Below, one piece after another: positions 2,795-31,403 of a stretch of DNA of 31,403 nucleotides (the first letter of the stretch is position 1; every line of letters begins with the position of its first letter). Source of the stretch: a virus (Duplodnaviria > Heunggongvirae > Uroviricota > Caudoviricetes). Below the pieces are notes generated by a model. That model was not told the DNA's origin. It did no database searches and was given only the letters and a program-made list of their open reading frames with translations. The stretch lies in IMG/VR virus record IMGVR_UViG_2623620492_000013; one strand, given 5' to 3'. A program made the translations under genes and the position numbers.

Positions 2795-3459
2795 GCATGT
2801 ATCAACGCATTAATGGCGCTGACTGGCGCAATATCTTCGTTGTGGGCGATCTGCATGGGTGCTACACGCTGCTGATGAGTGAGCTCGAAAAAGCTTCGTT
2901 CGACCCGGCGCGTGATTTGCTGATCTCGGTTGGAGACCTTGTTGACCGCGGCGCGGAAAACGTCGAGTGCCTGGAGCTGATTACTATGCCGTGGTTCCGG
3001 GCTGTGCGAGGAAACCATGAGCAGATGATGATTGATGGGCTATCGGAGTATGGGAACGTCAATCACTGGTTGGCAAATGGTGGCGGCTGGTTCTTCAATC
3101 TCGACTATGACAAAGAAGTGCTGGCTAAGGCTCTGGTTCACAAAGCAGCTGAGCTGCCACTCGTCATCGAGCTGGTTACCGCTGAGCGTAAAATCGTTAT
3201 CTGCCACGCTGACTACCCGCATAACGAATATGCGTTCGATAAGCCCATCCCGAAAGATATGGTCATCTGGAATCGTGAGAGGGTTAGCGACGCACAGGAC
3301 GGCATAGTATCGACGATAGCCGGTGCTGATCTGTTTATCTTCGGCCACACCCCAGCGCGCCAGCCCCTGAAGTATGCCAACCAGATGTACATCGACACCG
3401 GCGCCGTGTTCTGCGGAAACCTCACGCTGGTAAAGGTGCAAGGCGGTGAACATGCGTAA
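2791..3459 (+). CDS. Serine/threonine protein phosphatase (lambda PPase-like metallophosphoesterase)
   Basis: Motifs GDLHG, GDLVDRG and GNHE are characteristic of calcineurin-like phosphoesterases. Start taken at the ATG at 2791. Confidence 0.9.
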
Positions 3460-22144: not shown

Positions 22145-22523
22145 TTTTATCAGCAGGATGATCGGCGTGCCGTGGTCTAACCGCGCCTGCTCATTCGAAA
22201 AGACTGATTGCTGGGGGCTGGTTGTGCTGTATTACCGACATGTGCTCGACATTGAGCTGCACCAGACGCCGGGTTACGAAGCCGGGGAGGATTTCTTCAC
22301 CTGCTATCAGGGAGACGTCGTTTTCTGGCGCAAGGTCGATAAACCGGTCGACGGGGGGATATTTGTCGGGTACCGCGGCGCGCAACCGGCGCACGTTGGC
22401 CTGGTACTGAACCGGCAGGCGCTGCACTCGCGTGGAGAGAACGGAAGCGTGCGCATGGACTCGTTGCTGGTCATTCAGCGGGCATTCACCAAAGTGGAGT
22501 TTTTCGAATATGGCGCTGGTTGA
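22095..22523 (+). CDS. Tail-associated NlpC/P60-family peptidase (start uncertain: 22107 or 22158)
   Basis: TDCWGLV cysteine motif with a downstream His, typical of NlpC/P60 tail proteins such as lambda gpK. Confidence 0.6.
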   Translation: MANHMIQSNTRGFSTSDFISRMIGVPWSNRACSFEKTDCWGLVVLYYRHVLDIELHQTPGYEAGEDFFTCYQGDVVFWRKVDKPVDGGIFVGYRGAQPAHVGLVLNRQALHSRGENGSVRMDSLLVIQRAFTKVEFFEYGAG

Positions 22524-25044: not shown

Positions 25045-27021
25045 ATGGCTACGACACCTACCAACCTGTCAGTACCGAGCGAGTCCCCCCGCGATCTGAA
25101 ATTTAACGCAGGGAAAATTGATGAATTTGTGACATCGCTGGCACTTCAGTACATTGATCGCTTTGGCAATGCTCATTACACCATCGAAGGCCTGCGCTGG
25201 ATGGCGCAGCAGGCTATTTCCCAGTATGGGTGGGTTCCGATCGGAACATTCCAGGATGGTGCAACATTAACTCTGCCTAACCAAATCCTGAAAGACACCA
25301 CCGACGGTGAATACTATCGCTGGGACGGTTCATTTTTGCCATCAGGGAAGGTTGTGCCAAATGGTTCTACGCCAGGATCAACAGGTGGGGTTGGTGTAGG
25401 TGCATGGATAAGTGTTGGTGATTCGGCATTGCGCTCAATGCTTGCTTCTGAGCAAGGAGTTTCCATGGTTGGCGGCATTGCCATGGAGCTCGACTCTCAG
25501 GCCGATTTGGCAACAAACACAACTGTTCAGGGACGGCTGGTGGCAGTAAAGAACACTGTCGGTAGTTACAATAAATACTCCATAATTCCAAACTCTGGTG
25601 TGCTTGGCGATGGCGATGTAATCATCGACAGGGTGGATGGATTGCAGGCAGAGCTTCAGATTGAAGGGGTTCTGGATGTACGGGCTTTTGCAAAGTCTGG
25701 TAGGACAGACCAACAAATAATTCAGGCGGCATTAGATTACGCTGGATCTAAATCAGGTCATTGGGTTGTTGGCTTGACGGCCAAAGATAAAACCGGAACA
25801 CCATGGAGATTCAGCACACTTAACGTACCTGACAGCACTGTTTTTCAGGGGCATGGTGGCGCTCTTAAGCTAAATGACAATGTCTGTGTCGATGCTTCAG
25901 TTAGCTATTACTTGCTGCATAACATAAACGGCAATGATGTATGGCTGGACGGGTTATATATCGATGGCAATATGAGCAATAACTCCTTGTTCACCGTTGC
26001 TGATCTTGTAACCCTCATCGGAGAAGGGTCAAAAATCACCAATTGCACCCTTATGAATGCCCCCGACTCTGGTCTAATGTTCTCAGGTGTAAAGAATGGT
26101 CTAGCGTCTGCAAACACCATCGGCAATGGCAGAGATGTTGCTATCTATGCAAATGCAAGCGCAGACGGCAGCGCAAGGAACAATGTGTTATCTGACAATG
26201 TTCTGTACGGATTCCCGGCAGGAGGAATAGGATTTAAACGTTATTTTGCTGATTGTGTAGCCAGCGGGAACGCAATTTATCTCTGTGGAAACGGCGTGAC
26301 ATTTGAGGACTTTACTGTTGAGACCGAAGGTAAATTCCCCAAAAGGATTACGCTGTCTGGTACTTTTATGCGAGACATCGGCTTTCCACACCGCGCCACT
26401 GCTAACGTAGCAGAGCGAGGAATTAGCATTCAGCGTGCCTCTGATATCAGCATCACTGGTCTTCAGACAGTTAACGTTTCTGGCAATATATTATACATTG
26501 GAAATGGCACAGATATCTGCGTTGATAACGCCATGCTTAGAGGTTATGTTGCAAGTCCACAAAGCAACGGAAATAACGGAGTGCTAGTCGTTAATGCCCA
26601 AGGAGGGCACCTGAGTAATGTGAATGTTACCGCAGTGGCAAGCAGGGCAGGATATTTCCAGACCGTTAATGGCATGTCCGTTCGTGGCGGAAGATGGGTC
26701 AGTTCAGGGACTCAGTCTGGCATCAGGGTAGATGCTACCGCTCAATTTTCAATATTTAATCCTGACTATATTTCTGGTGGATCTGGAGCTGACGAAGAGT
26801 GGTTTGAAGGAGCAACAGGGATATCGAACGGATACATCCGGGCTAATGCAACAGGCCCAGGCAGATACGGAATAAGAGAGCTTTCTGCTGGGCAGGGCAC
26901 TAACCCAAATACAAGGCTTATCCCCAGATTTATTGGAGAGAAATGCGTTACCTTGTCAGATAGCGCAATCTGGATGGCAAAAGGTATGTCTAACTCTGAT
27001 TGGGTTAAGTTATCTAACTGA
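25045..27021 (+). CDS. Tail spike protein with right-handed beta-helix domain (putative polysaccharide depolymerase)
   Basis: 658 aa. The N-terminal ~110 aa look like a conserved tail-attachment module. The rest has Gly/Asn/Val-rich repeats (GNGRDVAIYANASADGSARNNVLSDNVLYG) typical of pectate-lyase-like beta-helices, and is more AT-rich than the N-terminus. Confidence 0.75.
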   Translation: MATTPTNLSVPSESPRDLKFNAGKIDEFVTSLALQYIDRFGNAHYTIEGLRWMAQQAISQYGWVPIGTFQDGATLTLPNQILKDTTDGEYYRWDGSFLPSGKVVPNGSTPGSTGGVGVGAWISVGDSALRSMLASEQGVSMVGGIAMELDSQADLATNTTVQGRLVAVKNTVGSYNKYSIIPNSGVLGDGDVIIDRVDGLQAELQIEGVLDVRAFAKSGRTDQQIIQAALDYAGSKSGHWVVGLTAKDKTGTPWRFSTLNVPDSTVFQGHGGALKLNDNVCVDASVSYYLLHNINGNDVWLDGLYIDGNMSNNSLFTVADLVTLIGEGSKITNCTLMNAPDSGLMFSGVKNGLASANTIGNGRDVAIYANASADGSARNNVLSDNVLYGFPAGGIGFKRYFADCVASGNAIYLCGNGVTFEDFTVETEGKFPKRITLSGTFMRDIGFPHRATANVAERGISIQRASDISITGLQTVNVSGNILYIGNGTDICVDNAMLRGYVASPQSNGNNGVLVVNAQGGHLSNVNVTAVASRAGYFQTVNGMSVRGGRWVSSGTQSGIRVDATAQFSIFNPDYISGGSGADEEWFEGATGISNGYIRANATGPGRYGIRELSAGQGTNPNTRLIPRFIGEKCVTLSDSAIWMAKGMSNSDWVKLSN

Positions 27022-28255
27022 AGTCAGGCCGCTGATGCGGCCTTTTCTCTGATAAAAACTGATTTATTAACTGCATAGTGTAAATAAGCATTAATACTTG
27101 AAAAACGAAAAGTACTCTCTTGCCTGAGCCATATGCTGAAGGCGAGAACATAATCATCATCACTGACGCACACGCCAGGAGAATGGTGAAACAACTGTAA
27201 AATGCATCATTTTTACACCTGGCATTAAAAACTGCGAGGCATATCATTGAACTAATTGTCAGTAGAGTCACTGCGTGAGATATGTAAACAGTAGTTCCAG
27301 CCCAATTACTTCCTGATAGATAATTAGAGTTTACCATTCCTTTGAATATATTCGCCCCAAGGAGAAAAGATAAGAACATTATTAATTTTACGGCTACAAT
27401 CGCAGCCGAAATTGATGGCAGGACTTTAAAATCTTTTCTTTTCACATAGAGTAACAACAAAGTAAGCATAGCGATATTGATTAGTACGTTGCCAGAAGAT
27501 GATACGTGACTGCTTAAGACATCCACACCTATTGATAGTTTTTGAAAGATGCCATAGCTAACGTAATCTGGAAGCCAGTTTTTTGACTCACTAAAATATC
27601 TTAACTTATTACCGGGAGCAGAAAAAAGAATAATGGCGCAAGCAATAGTTGTAACGAACATTGCGGCTATGATTGGAGTTATCCTTTTGAGATAGATAGC
27701 TCTGCATGCTAGAAATATCAAGAAGCAGATAGATATCTGTTCGTTGAACCCAAAGTACATAGCAGGTAAAACAGAGAGTGACTTAAGTATAATATTTAAT
27801 GATTTCTCGTTAAGTACTGCATAAACAGACAGTAGGCAAAGAGTTGCTGGCATTAGATAGTTATATGACCCTGCGATCCACCATGATGCATCCGCATTAA
27901 CTTCAGGTTCTATTAAGAAAAACATAAATAAAGAAACTGTGAAAGGAATCATCGCTCCTTGCTTTTCTCGAAGAGTTATCTTACTTATAATAAAAGATAT
28001 CAAAATAACACATGCTGGTATGAAAGTTTTCCAAAAGTATTCATAACGTATTGTATAGACCATGAGAGCATCTATAGTTAATCTCCCACTCCATTTTATA
28101 TATCTGTCATATATAACATCATATACATTAGAGTTTAAAAGCAAGCGTGAGAAATTTAAATCATCTCCTGAGTGACGCAAGGATAAACCAGAAAAAAGAA
28201 ATGCAATAATAGCGATAATAAGCATGGCGGCAGTGACTTTTATGGCCACTATCAT
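27014..28255 (-). CDS. Polytopic inner-membrane protein (putative serotype-specific O-antigen glucosyltransferase, GtrC-like)
   Basis: About 413 aa, many predicted transmembrane helices, very AT-rich, last gene of an operon that begins gtrA-gtrB. Start taken at ATG 28255 (TAAAATG junction); 28282 is the alternative. Confidence 0.6.
   Translation of the reverse strand: MIVAIKVTAAMLIIAIIAFLFSGLSLRHSGDDLNFSRLLLNSNVYDVIYDRYIKWSGRLTIDALMVYTIRYEYFWKTFIPACVILISFIISKITLREKQGAMIPFTVSLFMFFLIEPEVNADASWWIAGSYNYLMPATLCLLSVYAVLNEKSLNIILKSLSVLPAMYFGFNEQISICFLIFLACRAIYLKRITPIIAAMFVTTIACAIILFSAPGNKLRYFSESKNWLPDYVSYGIFQKLSIGVDVLSSHVSSSGNVLINIAMLTLLLLYVKRKDFKVLPSISAAIVAVKLIMFLSFLLGANIFKGMVNSNYLSGSNWAGTTVYISHAVTLLTISSMICLAVFNARCKNDAFYSCFTILLACASVMMIMFSPSAYGSGKRVLFVFQVLMLIYTMQLINQFLSEKRPHQRPDFS
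27026..27047. terminator. Hairpin between the convergent tail spike and gtr genes
   Basis: aggccgc-tgat-gcggcct palindrome. It overlaps the last codons of the reverse-strand membrane protein gene. Confidence 0.45.
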
Positions 28256-28256
28256 T

Positions 28257-28721
28257 TTATTTGCATTGGTAATGGATTTCATAATTATGGAGTCCGTCGT
28301 TAATCAATATAGCAATATTGCCAGTGAATTTTTTAACCTTTTTGTTTCTTACTTGAGAGTTAAACCCAGAGCGATCATAAAGCAATGGTTTTCCAAAAGC
28401 TCGACTTACATCACTTCTTCTGGTCATTGACTTGGGTATGCGCAACCATTTATCTCCGCCTATGCCAGCATAGATATTAACACTATAAAGTGTTTGCAAA
28501 TTGTAGTTTTTTACTGCTGCCCAACCATTAACTACAAGTCTGCCGTCCTCAACCCGGCATCTATCTATATGATATATAATTCCTGAACTTGTTTTAGCAT
28601 TGTCAAATTTAAATGTCGAAACGTCTGCTTTGTTAATATAAAAATAAAAGCCAGCAGGCAACATAATAGATGTTACAAACAATCCGACAAGTAATGTTTT
28701 TACAGGTAGTGAGACCTTCAT
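28257..28721 (-). CDS. Membrane-anchored hypothetical protein in the gtr operon
   Basis: 154 aa with one N-terminal transmembrane segment and a soluble domain. Coupled to gtrB upstream (ATGA) and the membrane protein downstream. Confidence 0.55.
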
Positions 28722-29635
28722 CCTTTCCTCTTCAAAATATATCTAGGACGGCTCTTTACTTCGGTGTAAATTCTTCCGATGTACTCACCAAGCACCCCGA
28801 TACCAATCAATTGGACTCCACCAAGGAAAAGGATAGAAACAAGAAGTGACGGGTAGCCCCGCACTGCGTTACCAAAAGCAAGGGTATCAACTATCATCCA
28901 TGAGCCATAGAGGAACGCCACGCCTGCAACCAGAAGGCCGATGTAAGTCCACATGCGAAGCGGGAAAGTAGAGAAACTCGTGATACCCTCAAGTGCCAGG
29001 TTCCACAACTTCCAGCCGTTAAATTTCGTACTTCCTGCGACGCGTTCTGCGCGGGCATATTCAACGACATCTGTACGGCCGCCAACCCAGCTCAATACGC
29101 CCTTCATGAACAGGTTGCGCTCTGGCATGAGCTTAATGTTTTCCACCACCTCGCGGGACATAAGGCGGAAGTCACCAACGTTTTCTTCAATCTTCGGGTT
29201 GCTGATTTTGTTGTGCAGCTTATAGAACCATTCAGCGGTCTTGCGCTTCAGTCTGCCATCTGTAGAGCGATCAGAGCGTTTAGCGAGAACCATATCAGCA
29301 CCGGCCTGCCATTTCTCGATAAGGTGAGGAATGACTTCGATAGGGTCCTGCAAGTCTACGTCAATCGGGATAATTGCTTCACCGGTCGCGTGGTCAAGGC
29401 CGGCGAACAGGGCTGGTTCTTTCCCAAAGTTACGAGTAAATGACAATGGAACAACAAGCGTATCGGCAACAGCAAGCGCGTTAATAATTGATTCTGTCGC
29501 GTCTTTGCTGCCGTCATTGATGAATACTATCTCGACTTCATGCTGCTGAAGGCCTTCAAATTCCCGAACCGTTTTATAAAAAATCGGTATCGCGTCTTCT
29601 TCGTTGAAGACGGGAACGACCAGAGAAATTTTCAT
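28718..29635 (-). CDS. gtrB: Bactoprenol glucosyltransferase GtrB (GT2 family)
   Basis: 305 aa with the N-terminal glycosyltransferase-2 fold motif VVPVFNEE...INDGSKD and two C-terminal transmembrane helices; close match to GtrB as recalled from Shigella and Salmonella serotype-converting phages. Confidence 0.9.
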
Positions 29636-29994
29636 TTCGCATCCCTAAAGACAATAAACTTAGAATAGAAAAAGCCACATACAAGACTAATGGCGGAGAA
29701 CGCCACCAGTGTGACGATTGGCGGTAAGCCACACCTGTCAGCAGCCCAACCTACAGCAGCACTCAGCGTTCCCATAAACCCAACGTAAAGCATGTAACGC
29801 AGCGTGGAAGTGGATGCTTTAAAAGTGAAGCGTGCGTTAGCGTAGAAACTAAAGCTGACGGCTACCACGAAACCTGCAAAGTTAGCCAATGCCTGACTTG
29901 TGGATAGGCCATACACGCAAACACCAAACACGACCCAGTGAATGAGTGTGTTCAGTACGCCAATCGATGTGTACTTAGCAAAAAGTTTTAACAT
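29632..29994 (-). CDS. gtrA: Bactoprenol-linked glucose translocase GtrA
   Basis: 120-aa four-helix membrane protein; [20 protein letters not shown]...FIVFRDAK matches GtrA closely. Confidence 0.9.
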
Positions 29995-30070
29995 TAGAAA
30001 AATCAGTCAATTCTGAGAAGGCAGAAGTTTAGCACCAACAAACAACTTGATCGACTATCAGAATAAGATG

Positions 30071-30090
30071 TACTGTATATGTGTACAGTA
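30071..30090 (+). promoter_or_regulatory. LexA (SOS) box
   Basis: TACTGTATATGTGTACAGTA is a near-perfect match to the enterobacterial LexA consensus CTGT-N8-ACAG with AT-rich spacer, 19 nt upstream of the ATG at 30110. Confidence 0.8.
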
Positions 30091-30109
30091 TTTATTTTTG
30101 GGTGACTAT

Positions 30110-30349
30110 ATGCCGCGTCGTTCAGATATCGTGATCGCCTTCAGAGCCTCTATTGTGCATGAAAGGTCAGGCCGCAGGATTGTGAAAACTGCTGATTTTG
30201 TTCAGGAACTACTAAAGGTCAACTGGGACCTAAGTATGGAAGAGGCGAATCAGTGGATAGATAGGTACACAACCTGCTTCAAAGACATCACTCCTGACCA
30301 CGGAGAGAACAAGACGTGGTTCATGTACAACCCGAATGGAGGGCTTTGA
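30110..30349 (+). CDS. Hypothetical 79-aa protein, first gene of the LexA-box operon
   Basis: ATG at 30110 directly downstream of the LexA box; the longer reading frame from 30047 would include the box. No similarity recognised to DinI or other known small SOS proteins. Confidence 0.5.
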   Translation: MPRRSDIVIAFRASIVHERSGRRIVKTADFVQELLKVNWDLSMEEANQWIDRYTTCFKDITPDHGENKTWFMYNPNGGL

Positions 30350-30350
30350 T

Positions 30351-30734
30351 ATGGCATTTGCATCCCCGGCTAAGGACTATGTGGAGCGCGGCATCTCTTT
30401 AGATGCTGAGTTGATTAGCCATCCATCGGCGACTTACTATGTCAGGTCTGATGTGGCTATTTTGCGTGCCGGCATTAAGCAAGGCGCGCTGCTTGTCGTG
30501 GACTCAGCAGTAAATCCATGTGATGGCTCGATCGTTCTCTGTTCCATCGATGGCCAGTTTGTCCTGAGGTATTACCGTATGTTCCCATGCTTGCATCTGG
30601 AGAACATGGAGACAGGTCGGAAGGAAAGGGCGCGCGGACTCGACGACGGAAGTGCAATCGATGTTTTCGGCGTGGTGACATACATCATTAACAATGCGCG
30701 CACCGGTGAATTCGACGACAACCCGGTTATTTAA
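30351..30734 (+). CDS. UmuD'-like protein (pre-truncated UmuD homologue, HumD-like)
   Basis: Aligns by eye with E. coli UmuD from Gly25 onward (ASPAKDYVE..., HPSATY, LLVVDSA, DVFGVV). GGAGG RBS 8 nt before ATG 30351; the alternative start is 30336. The Ser and Lys positions of the catalytic dyad appear substituted in my manual alignment. Confidence 0.7.
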   Translation: MAFASPAKDYVERGISLDAELISHPSATYYVRSDVAILRAGIKQGALLVVDSAVNPCDGSIVLCSIDGQFVLRYYRMFPCLHLENMETGRKERARGLDDGSAIDVFGVVTYIINNARTGEFDDNPVI

Positions 30735-31403
30735 TCAGACGGGCTCGATTAACTCCGGGCCCTGATTCTTCACATTACCAACAGCGCGCGACACTGCGTG
30801 CCAGATAAATGCATCTGCTGGCACCGAACCGTCGGAAACAATCTCCTCTGCTTCTTTCCCGCCCACATCCTGCCGCATCCATTCGCGTGCTGCTTCCGGT
30901 GACAGAACGAGTTGCCTGCGGTCGTGAATATCGACCAGTCCTTTATCGGCAGCCGCCGTGACTATCATAAAGCCTTCCGCTTCATCATCACGCTCAAACG
31001 GCGTACTGCCTATCGCCGCCATGAATATCGGCTTACCGTCCGCCCGATGAATGAAGTACGGCTGCTTCTTTTCGCCTTGCTTCTTCCATTCGAACCAGCC
31101 ATCAGCAAAGACTATCGCCCGGCCATGTTGCCAGAGCGGTTTGAACATCCGACTGGTGGCCGCAGTTTCCACACGTGCGTTTATCAGAGGCGGCTTATCC
31201 CACCATCCTGGAGCATAGCCCCAGTAAACCGGATCGAGGTGTAGTTGTTCATCTCGTTCGCTCAGCAGCAAAACTTTAGTGCCTGGCGCCACGTTGTACC
31301 GGCCAATGGGTTCCGGGTCGAACGGAATGTCACACTCGGCCTCTTCAGCGATTAACGCCAGATAATCTTCACGGGTCATTGATTGAGAGAAACGTCCGCA
31401 CAT
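30735..31403 (-). CDS. yedK: SOS-response-associated peptidase (SRAP), YedK-like host gene
   Basis: 222 aa starting MCGRF (the Cys2 nucleophile is the SRAP hallmark); the start codon is the last three bases of the window. Confidence 0.8.
   Translation of the reverse strand: MCGRFSQSMTREDYLALIAEEAECDIPFDPEPIGRYNVAPGTKVLLLSERDEQLHLDPVYWGYAPGWWDKPPLINARVETAATSRMFKPLWQHGRAIVFADGWFEWKKQGEKKQPYFIHRADGKPIFMAAIGSTPFERDDEAEGFMIVTAAADKGLVDIHDRRQLVLSPEAAREWMRQDVGGKEAEEIVSDGSVPADAFIWHAVSRAVGNVKNQGPELIEPV

Follow-up and report, generated by a model that had tools for sequence, protein, structure and literature searches.

A modular tailspike convergent with a four-gene gtr operon in an Escherichia coli prophage, a likely pairing of a receptor-binding protein with receptor modification

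IMG/VR record IMGVR_UViG_2623620492_000013, a stretch of 31,403 nucleotides referred to here as the window, carries a prophage that belongs with the temperate siphoviruses of CobraSix/ES18-like type and resides in Escherichia coli beside yciB/ompW/trp (placement taken from locus L003). At what would be the right-hand accessory end of this integrated siphovirus, a tailspike gene on the + strand meets a gtr operon on the − strand (27014–29994). We consider it likely that these constitute a receptor and receptor-masking pair, in which a modular tailspike faces a four-gene gtr conversion operon that would modify the very receptor recognized by the tailspike. The pairing of tailspikes with gtr genes is already-known biology and a textbook case of lysogenic conversion, of which the window locus is a new and rare member: a search of 5,426 complete E. 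coli genomes and of sequenced phages did not detect the tailspike–gtr region, with gtrA and gtrB alone yielding matches (76–84% identity). New, by comparison, is an operon of four genes, one of which encodes a conserved, unnamed and putative partner of a DUF6056 glycosyltransferase; the first-pass annotation had not noted this additional gene. That the gtr operon converges on the tailspike had been proposed in a first-pass annotation of the same DNA, and was confirmed by the listing of open reading frames (ORFs) and by family scans, which place the tail-to-tail overlap between the tailspike gene and gtrC at 8 bp (27014–27021). The features of this locus are as follows.

25045–27021, + strand: tailspike, 658 residues (Pfam Tail_spike_N and Beta_helix)
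25045–25428, + strand: N-terminal particle-binding anchor of the tailspike, residues 1–128 (Pfam, PDB-chain and siphovirus matches)
25429–27021, + strand: receptor-binding and probable depolymerase module of the tailspike, residues 129–658, predicted right-handed beta-helix (Pfam, AlphaFold2 (AF2) model, Foldseek)
27026–27047, + strand: GC-rich hairpin followed by a T-run, resembling an intrinsic terminator (sequence, folding, conservation in the related locus L005)
27014–28282, − strand: gtrC, predicted GtrC-like polytopic glycosyltransferase, 422 residues, DUF6056/GT_STM0557_N (Pfam)
28257–28721, − strand: small ORF, the fourth gtr gene, 154 residues, predicted N-terminal transmembrane (TM) helix and extracytoplasmic Ig-like beta-sandwich (AF2, gene neighbourhoods)
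28718–29635, − strand: gtrB, predicted undecaprenyl-phosphate glucosyltransferase of family GT2 (Glycos_transf_2, phrog_34335)
29632–29994, − strand: gtrA, small membrane protein, putative flippase of the lipid-linked sugar (GtrA_DPMS_TM, phrog_2224)

In the mechanism that we infer, which extends to the sugar and its acceptor, to protection of the lysogen and to what the small protein does, the tailspike would be the last late gene product and would be fixed to the tail tip by its N-terminal anchor, while its beta-helix module would bind, and probably cleave, a surface polysaccharide, most likely O-antigen. The gtr operon would encode an extracytoplasmic glycosylation system for lysogenic conversion: GtrB would load a hexose, presumably glucose, onto undecaprenyl phosphate, GtrA would flip the lipid-linked hexose to the periplasmic face, and the DUF6056-type GT-C enzyme would move it onto the O-unit. 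The type-specific part of this system would consist of two genes, with the 154-residue beta-sandwich protein, apparently translationally coupled to the 422-residue transferase, acting as an acceptor-glycan-binding or positioning subunit. The modified O-antigen of the lysogen would then no longer be a substrate or receptor for the phage's own tailspike, and this masking would prevent superinfection and keep released virions from being trapped on lysogens.

Tailspike modules, the modifiers behind them and the junction hairpin

The N-terminal region of the tailspike includes a Pfam Tail_spike_N domain (PF18668; residues 67–126, E = 1.6e-16) and matches PDB chain 9occ_G (gp13) over residues 1–144 (E = 4.6e-44) as well as CBA120 TSP1 over residues 57–142, with TSP3 and TSP4 likewise matching the N-terminal domain. 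Residues 1–130/170 share 58–66% identity with siphovirus tailspikes (CobraSix, ENT47670 and Jersey-like), which bears out the conserved N-terminal anchor suggested at first pass. Further along the protein, a Pfam Beta_helix domain (PF13229) was recognized at residues 309–422 (27.9 bits against a cutoff of 25.9), and an AF2 model built with 32 homologues reached a predicted local distance difference test (pLDDT) score of 83.4, with values above 90 through most of residues 220–600. The best Foldseek matches of this model in the PDB are CBA120 TSP3 (E = 1.7e-11), TSP4, TSP2, K2-2 TSP, HK620 and Sf6, and the tailspike body is accordingly modelled as a right-handed parallel beta-helix.

Horizontal exchange of the recognition module, which the first-pass annotation had suggested from the conserved anchor and the base composition, is directly supported by comparison with related phages, because nearly the same module (81–85% identity) sits on different N-termini from residues 129–133 onwards. 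In P0121, the tailspike of a P22-like prophage of E. fergusonii, gap-free similarity at 85% identity begins at exactly residue 129 and continues to the end, behind a P22-type head-binding N-terminus (PF09008). In P0122, the same module (81% identity from residue 133) follows a 216-residue N-terminus of a third kind. The domain boundary, and with it the exchange point, is placed at residues 129–133, about nucleotide 25429. The tailspike of L067, a sibling prophage of Enterobacter hormaechei, is 66% identical over its full length, and the module alone is 44.7% identical to the tailspikes of ChubbyThor and MK-13, which are large phages of Shigella boydii type 1. One receptor module (81–86% identity) is thus found on three virion anchors with four different O-antigen modifiers behind it, a natural module-swap example that should be useful for host-range prediction and tailspike engineering.

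The C-terminal part of the tailspike is also AT-richer, as had been noted, although the difference is modest: GC content is 56.0% in the tail tip, 51.0% in tailspike residues 1–130 and 46.4% in residues 201–658, and GC content at third codon positions is 47.7 against 41.5 for the same two parts of the tailspike. The strongly foreign DNA is instead the type-specific part of the gtr operon, with 35.8% GC in gtrC and 35.3% in the small ORF, before GC content returns to 48.8% in gtrB.

Among relatives of the receptor module with a readable genomic context, a convergent O-antigen modifier stands behind the tailspike in four out of four contexts, the window included, and its nature differs from one context to the next:

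L064: single 555-residue DUF6056 GtrC, 24% identical to the window GtrC
L066: 380-residue Acyl_transf_3 protein, Oac-like
L067: 480-residue Glucos_trans_II GtrC
Window and L005: pair of small ORF and DUF6056 protein

The consistent presence of a modifier, even though the kinds differ, supports at the level of gene neighbourhoods a receptor/anti-receptor reading over pure positional coincidence. Block co-inheritance of the receptor module with the type-specific gtr genes, as suggested by L005, was rejected as a general rule since modules that are 81–86% identical adjoin unrelated modifiers; module and modifier are therefore not inherited as one block. At L066 (7001–10406), a tailspike module 81% identical to that of the window is followed by a convergent Acyl_transf_3 gene in place of gtr. 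Apparently, one phage counters this receptor module by acetylation and others do so by glycosylation, which would make the same receptor maskable in several chemical ways.

At the junction of the tailspike and gtr genes lies a hairpin, AGGCCGC-TGAT-GCGGCCT (27026–27043), followed by TTTCTCTG on the + strand. Its stem has 7 bp, of which 6 are GC, and its folding free energy is −18.2 kcal/mol (z = −4.8), with none of 200 shuffled sequences as stable. The hairpin lies 3' of the tailspike stop codon (27019–27021) and within the last 11 codons of gtrC (stop codon at 27014–27016), so that the hairpin, together with sequence antisense to the end of the tailspike gene, encodes the C-terminal residues RPHQRPDFS of GtrC. 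In L005, the sole related locus, 17 of the 18 nucleotides are kept despite flanking proteins that are just 43–47% identical, which argues that the hairpin is under selection. The T-run of L005 is better (TTCTCTTTTTTT), and the gtrC stop codon of that locus falls in the hairpin loop. When window positions 27014–27047 are set against L005 positions 3015–3045, the window gtrC is seen to read the hairpin in another frame, without the in-loop TAA (the loop reads TCA); it consequently continues for another 9–10 codons, antisense to the stop region of the tailspike gene, which produces the 8-bp overlap.

The first-pass annotation had described this hairpin (27026–27047) as shared and as overlapping the 3' end of the last gtr gene. 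The overlap is real, but the hairpin does not appear to be shared: a T-run follows the stem on the + strand only and would serve the tailspike strand alone, whereas the − strand continues with GACTTCAG, which has no T-run. A shared bidirectional intrinsic terminator was rejected on this ground, and the hairpin looks like a terminator of the late (tailspike) operon rather than a symmetric shared one; its position within the coding end of gtrC would then be happenstance. At this junction, every related locus carries a GC hairpin, a different one each time, and that of epsilon34 is annotated. No known RNA element or tRNA was found at the tailspike–gtr junction.

The gtr proteins and a fourth gtr gene

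Two of the gtr products are readily classified. GtrA matches PF04138 (GtrA_DPMS_TM, E = 9.8e-15) and phrog_2224 (E = 1.3e-67), and GtrB matches PF00535 (Glycos_transf_2, E = 2.6e-29) and the GtrB family phrog_34335 (E = 2.5e-178), with 92–96% identity to GtrB of related prophages. GtrC matches Pfam DUF6056 (E = 1.3e-13; 51 bits against a cutoff of 27), a family renamed GT_STM0557_N in newer Pfam, and a hydropathy scan identified at least 8 hydrophobic segments. Across 33 family members, residue D40, located after TM1, is invariant and D41 nearly so. An acidic motif is usual in GT-C enzymes, and D40/D41 are compatible with such a motif. No relative was identified by sequence when the GtrC profile was compared to solved structures. 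On these features, GtrC is predicted to be the variable, type-specific glycosyltransferase of GT-C type.

GtrC is also rarely encountered. Its matches among 5.8 billion clusters number three, namely an identical E. coli protein, the L005 protein (~45–46% identity) and one protein at 28%, and its relatives in species-representative genomes, at 29% identity or less, are found in Firmicutes, Methanobrevibacter, Bacteroides and a few others, a distribution in keeping with its 36% GC. The type-specific gtr genes (27014–28721) have 35–36% GC within a phage of 52–56% GC, and together with nearest non-E. coli relatives that are at most 29% identical, this points to a distant origin of these genes. Between the window and L005, identity amounts to 93.8% for GtrB, 46.8–48% for the small ORF product, 45.0–46% for GtrC and 43% for the tailspike end, with the break located exactly at the gtrB stop codon, where the variable block starts.

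The operon departs from the classical three-gene gtrA-gtrB-gtrC architecture, as a conserved 154-residue ORF separates gtrB from gtrC, which is hence not immediately 3' of gtrB. All four − strand genes overlap, by 4, 4 and 26 nt, with the small ORF sharing 4 nt with gtrB and 26 nt with gtrC. The product of this ORF had zero family matches in Pfam, NCBIfam and PHROG. At L005, a counterpart of 152 residues occupies the same position with the same 26-nt overlap (E = 7e-49), and an exhaustive phmmer search of 1.84 billion representatives returned 115 relatives at E ≤ 1e-3. About two thirds of these are standalone proteins of ~150 residues with an N-terminal hydrophobic helix, and the remaining ones carry the domain in tandem or C-terminally in larger proteins. 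Conserved motifs of the family include YxIDxC, GWA, RxDV, YDxSGF and a C-terminal CK, and the AF2 model of the window protein is an Ig-like beta-sandwich with a pLDDT of 93.7. The L005 counterpart, the 115 relatives, the conserved motifs, the confidence of the model and the constant pairing with DUF6056 proteins described below all argue that the small ORF represents a genuine gene that has been conserved, and not an artefact.

In 13 of the 13 independent contexts that could be read, from Enterobacteria, Firmicutes and Bacteroides, the small gene is located directly upstream of, and usually overlaps, a gene for a 380–450-residue DUF6056-type protein; these partner proteins match a profile built from DUF6056 relatives with E-values of 1e-25 to 1e-119. 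The contexts are:

Individual loci: window, L005, L054, L055, L056/57, L058/59, L061/62, and L060 (a Firmicute polysaccharide locus)
From a scan of one genome per species: two Lachnospiraceae loci and four Bacteroides loci

One of these loci, L056 (2731–6754), belongs to a Mu-like myovirus prophage (Baseplate_J, Mu Gp48) and reads umuDC, gtrA, gtrB, small ORF (148 residues) and DUF6056 gene (407 residues). Its four-gene gtr operon is followed by convergent tail-fibre genes, and the four-gene variant thus also adjoins a receptor-binding gene in another phage type.

Outside of these pairs, the small-ORF domain is found fused to YkuD L,D-transpeptidase, glucosaminidase and AlgX-like SGNH domains, and DUF6311 membrane proteins carry it C-terminally. 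It seems to represent an unnamed module that is peculiar to enzymes of cell-envelope glycans. Within large proteins (P0025, P0085, P0088, P0095, P0051, P0009, P0048 and P0006), the domain is ~100 residues long and often in tandem, and the YkuD L,D-transpeptidases that bear it have a KxYKxGKxW signal peptide. Based on the adjacency to a DUF6056 GT-C gene in 13 of 13 contexts and on the fusions to extracytoplasmic glycan enzymes, we propose that the 154-residue protein works together with one subset of the DUF6056 GT-C enzymes; its most plausible task would be to hold or select the acceptor glycan. More tentatively, and with somewhat less than even confidence, it may found an undescribed family of membrane-anchored beta-sandwich subunits in four-component glycan-modification systems across Proteobacteria, Firmicutes and Bacteroidota, with acceptor recognition supplied in trans.

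We also considered a split GtrC, in which the small ORF would be the detached C-terminal domain of a GtrC of the epsilon34/STM0557 type. This was rejected, as the profile of the small family gave no match to epsilon34 GtrC or to the 555-residue GtrC of L064; the equal core length of unpartnered relatives weakens it further, and sequence-level support is absent.

A review left open whether the smaller GT-C enzymes depend on further proteins to recognize their acceptor (PMC8035078), and the small partner bears on this question. In GT136 and EmbC, beta-rich or lectin-like periplasmic domains are located inside the same polypeptide: EmbC, with its C-terminal carbohydrate-binding module, and the GT136 enzyme ORF12 both combine a polytopic GT-C core with a periplasmic domain, rich in beta structure, that presumably handles the acceptor glycan (PMC11127046). 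In the window, by contrast, the beta-sandwich is on a separate membrane-anchored protein, linked to the transferase through gene neighbourhood alone, and no sequence similarity to those domains was found. A search for a fourth gtr gene or for DUF6056 returned nothing relevant in the searchable literature, which is not proof that no such report exists. If the proposed role is true, the phage gtr version would provide an easily assayed model in an E. coli prophage, with O-antigen ladders and phage adsorption as readouts.

Known systems and alternative explanations

Salmonella phage epsilon34 resembles the window in its order int-attP-gtrA-gtrB-gtrC-terminator hairpin with the tailspike on the opposite strand (P22 is in the same class), in a GtrC of the DUF6056/STM0557 type, and in having conserved GtrA and GtrB next to a variable GtrC of low GC content. 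It differs in being a podovirus whose tailspike has a head-binding anchor, and in encoding GtrC as a single 551-residue protein with an extra C-terminal region, with no small ORF and a null result for the small-ORF profile; the two GtrC proteins are 26.7% identical over 40% of the length. L067 and the Enterobacter phage ENT1 are sibling siphoviruses with the same tail backbone and tailspike architecture, a convergent gtr operon and an accessory end of umuD-like and SRAP genes, arranged in the order tail tip, tailspike, convergent gtrC-gtrB-gtrA. Unlike the window, they have a classical gtrABC set with a GtrC of 480–500 residues (Glucos_trans_II, PF14264, in L067) and no small ORF.

Experimental precedent for the protective logic comes from two phages. 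The GtrC of the Salmonella prophage BTP1 shields O-antigen from the BTP1 tailspike and blocks superinfection, as proposed here, and is both necessary and sufficient for BTP1 resistance; unlike in the window, this GtrC acts without GtrA and GtrB, belongs to a different GtrC family and is encoded by a P22-like phage (PMC4413052). Similarly, lysogens of E. coli 4s carrying Hf4s no longer adsorb this phage (10.1101/2021.06.09.447823). Like the window prophage, Hf4s is a temperate phage of E. coli that has a gtr cluster. Its tailspike is specific for O-antigen and its GtrC is distantly related to that of epsilon34; it differs from the window prophage in being a podovirus (Lederbergvirus) for which a three-gene cluster was described. 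By analogy with these phages, we infer a protective effect at the window locus.

Several observations weigh against a dedicated receptor and receptor-masking pair with a four-gene modifier. Accessory genes usually sit at the end of the late operon, which accounts in part for the adjacency of the two, and closely related receptor modules (81–86% identity) are paired with unrelated modifiers. Most DUF6056 relatives are without a small partner and yet have the same core length, so that the partner is no simple substitute for a missing domain. Finally, the T-run of the window hairpin, besides being confined to the + strand, is short and interrupted. Some of these points are shared with an alternative that we regard as unlikely, in which the gtr operon would be an accessory set at its usual insertion site, unrelated to the receptor of its own tailspike, and would help the host to evade immunity or to resist other phages. 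The same end region does hold unrelated accessory genes (orf100, humD and SRAP, with umuDC in L067 and CobraSix), CobraSix has a related tailspike anchor without a gtr operon, closely related receptor modules have different modifiers, and gtr clusters move with great ease from one phage type to another (PMC2629481). However, it is an O-antigen modifier and not a random accessory gene that stands directly behind the tailspike in all four contexts as well as in L005, and self-protection has been demonstrated experimentally in analogous phages.

Two further alternatives seem to us improbable. The tailspike could target a polysaccharide other than O-antigen, such as K antigen capsule, colanic acid or enterobacterial common antigen, in which case tailspike and gtr products would act on different molecules. 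Capsule depolymerases are indeed among its fold matches (K2-2 TSP, a K1 lyase and Acinetobacter capsule tailspikes), and the closest homologs of known specificity, those of the Shigella boydii type 1 phages, are only 44.7% identical; yet it is via O-antigen that such phages infect Shigella boydii type 1 and E. coli, the closest hosts to have been characterised, and the module's relatives consistently have O-antigen modifiers as partners, the Oac-like acyltransferase among them. The 154-residue protein, for its part, has about as small a chance of lying outside the glycosylation machinery, as an independent envelope protein (for superinfection exclusion, or modulating O-antigen chain length or the O-antigen polymerase) that travels with the operon. 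Seroconverting phages offer a precedent, with epsilon15 and D3 encoding small inhibitors of the O-antigen polymerase, the fold of the 154-residue protein reveals no catalytic or binding function, and most DUF6056 enzymes work without a small partner. Against such independence stand its pairing with a DUF6056 GT-C gene in every readable context, including non-phage polysaccharide loci of Firmicutes and Bacteroides, and the fusion of the same domain to other glycan-acting enzymes.

Regulation and the accessory end

Two further features flank the tailspike and gtr genes:

22432/22510–24987, + strand: tail-tip J-like protein (phrog_469)
29995–30109, divergent intergenic region: presumed gtr promoter and LexA-box-like palindrome (sequence)

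Phase-variable gtr promoters of the P22 type are marked by two pairs of GATC sites, four in total, that fall within OxyR half-sites ahead of gtrA (PMC2909390). Upstream of the window gtrA, just two GATC sites were found, at 30049 and 30133, 84 bp apart and unpaired, with one of them within 29995–30109. Dam/OxyR phase variation as in P22 gtr was rejected because this signature of GATC pairs is absent.

The same intergenic region includes a perfect CTGT-N8-ACAG palindrome that is unique in the window (core at 30073–30088, within TACTGTATATGTGTACAGTA at 30071–30090). It is located ~20 nt upstream of the probable start of orf100-humD (30110) and 77–96 nt upstream of the divergent gtrA start. The palindrome looks like a LexA box for orf100-humD, in which case an SOS-controlled accessory operon would share its intergenic region with the gtr promoter.

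For the tail-tip gene, the mechanical start is a GTG at 22432 (851 residues), and the 825-residue product in public assemblies corresponds to an ATG at 22510, from which the gene overlaps the upstream NlpC/P60 tail gene only briefly. At the other side, the end of the prophage (30047–31403) is a DNA-damage-tolerance cluster that encodes a 100-residue protein (phrog_3893), a HumD/UmuD'-like S24 peptidase (NCBIfam HumD, E = 1.2e-48), for which a umuC partner is missing, and a YedK-like SRAP protein. The sibling elements CobraSix, L067 and L056 have a umuD-like gene together with umuC at the same place.

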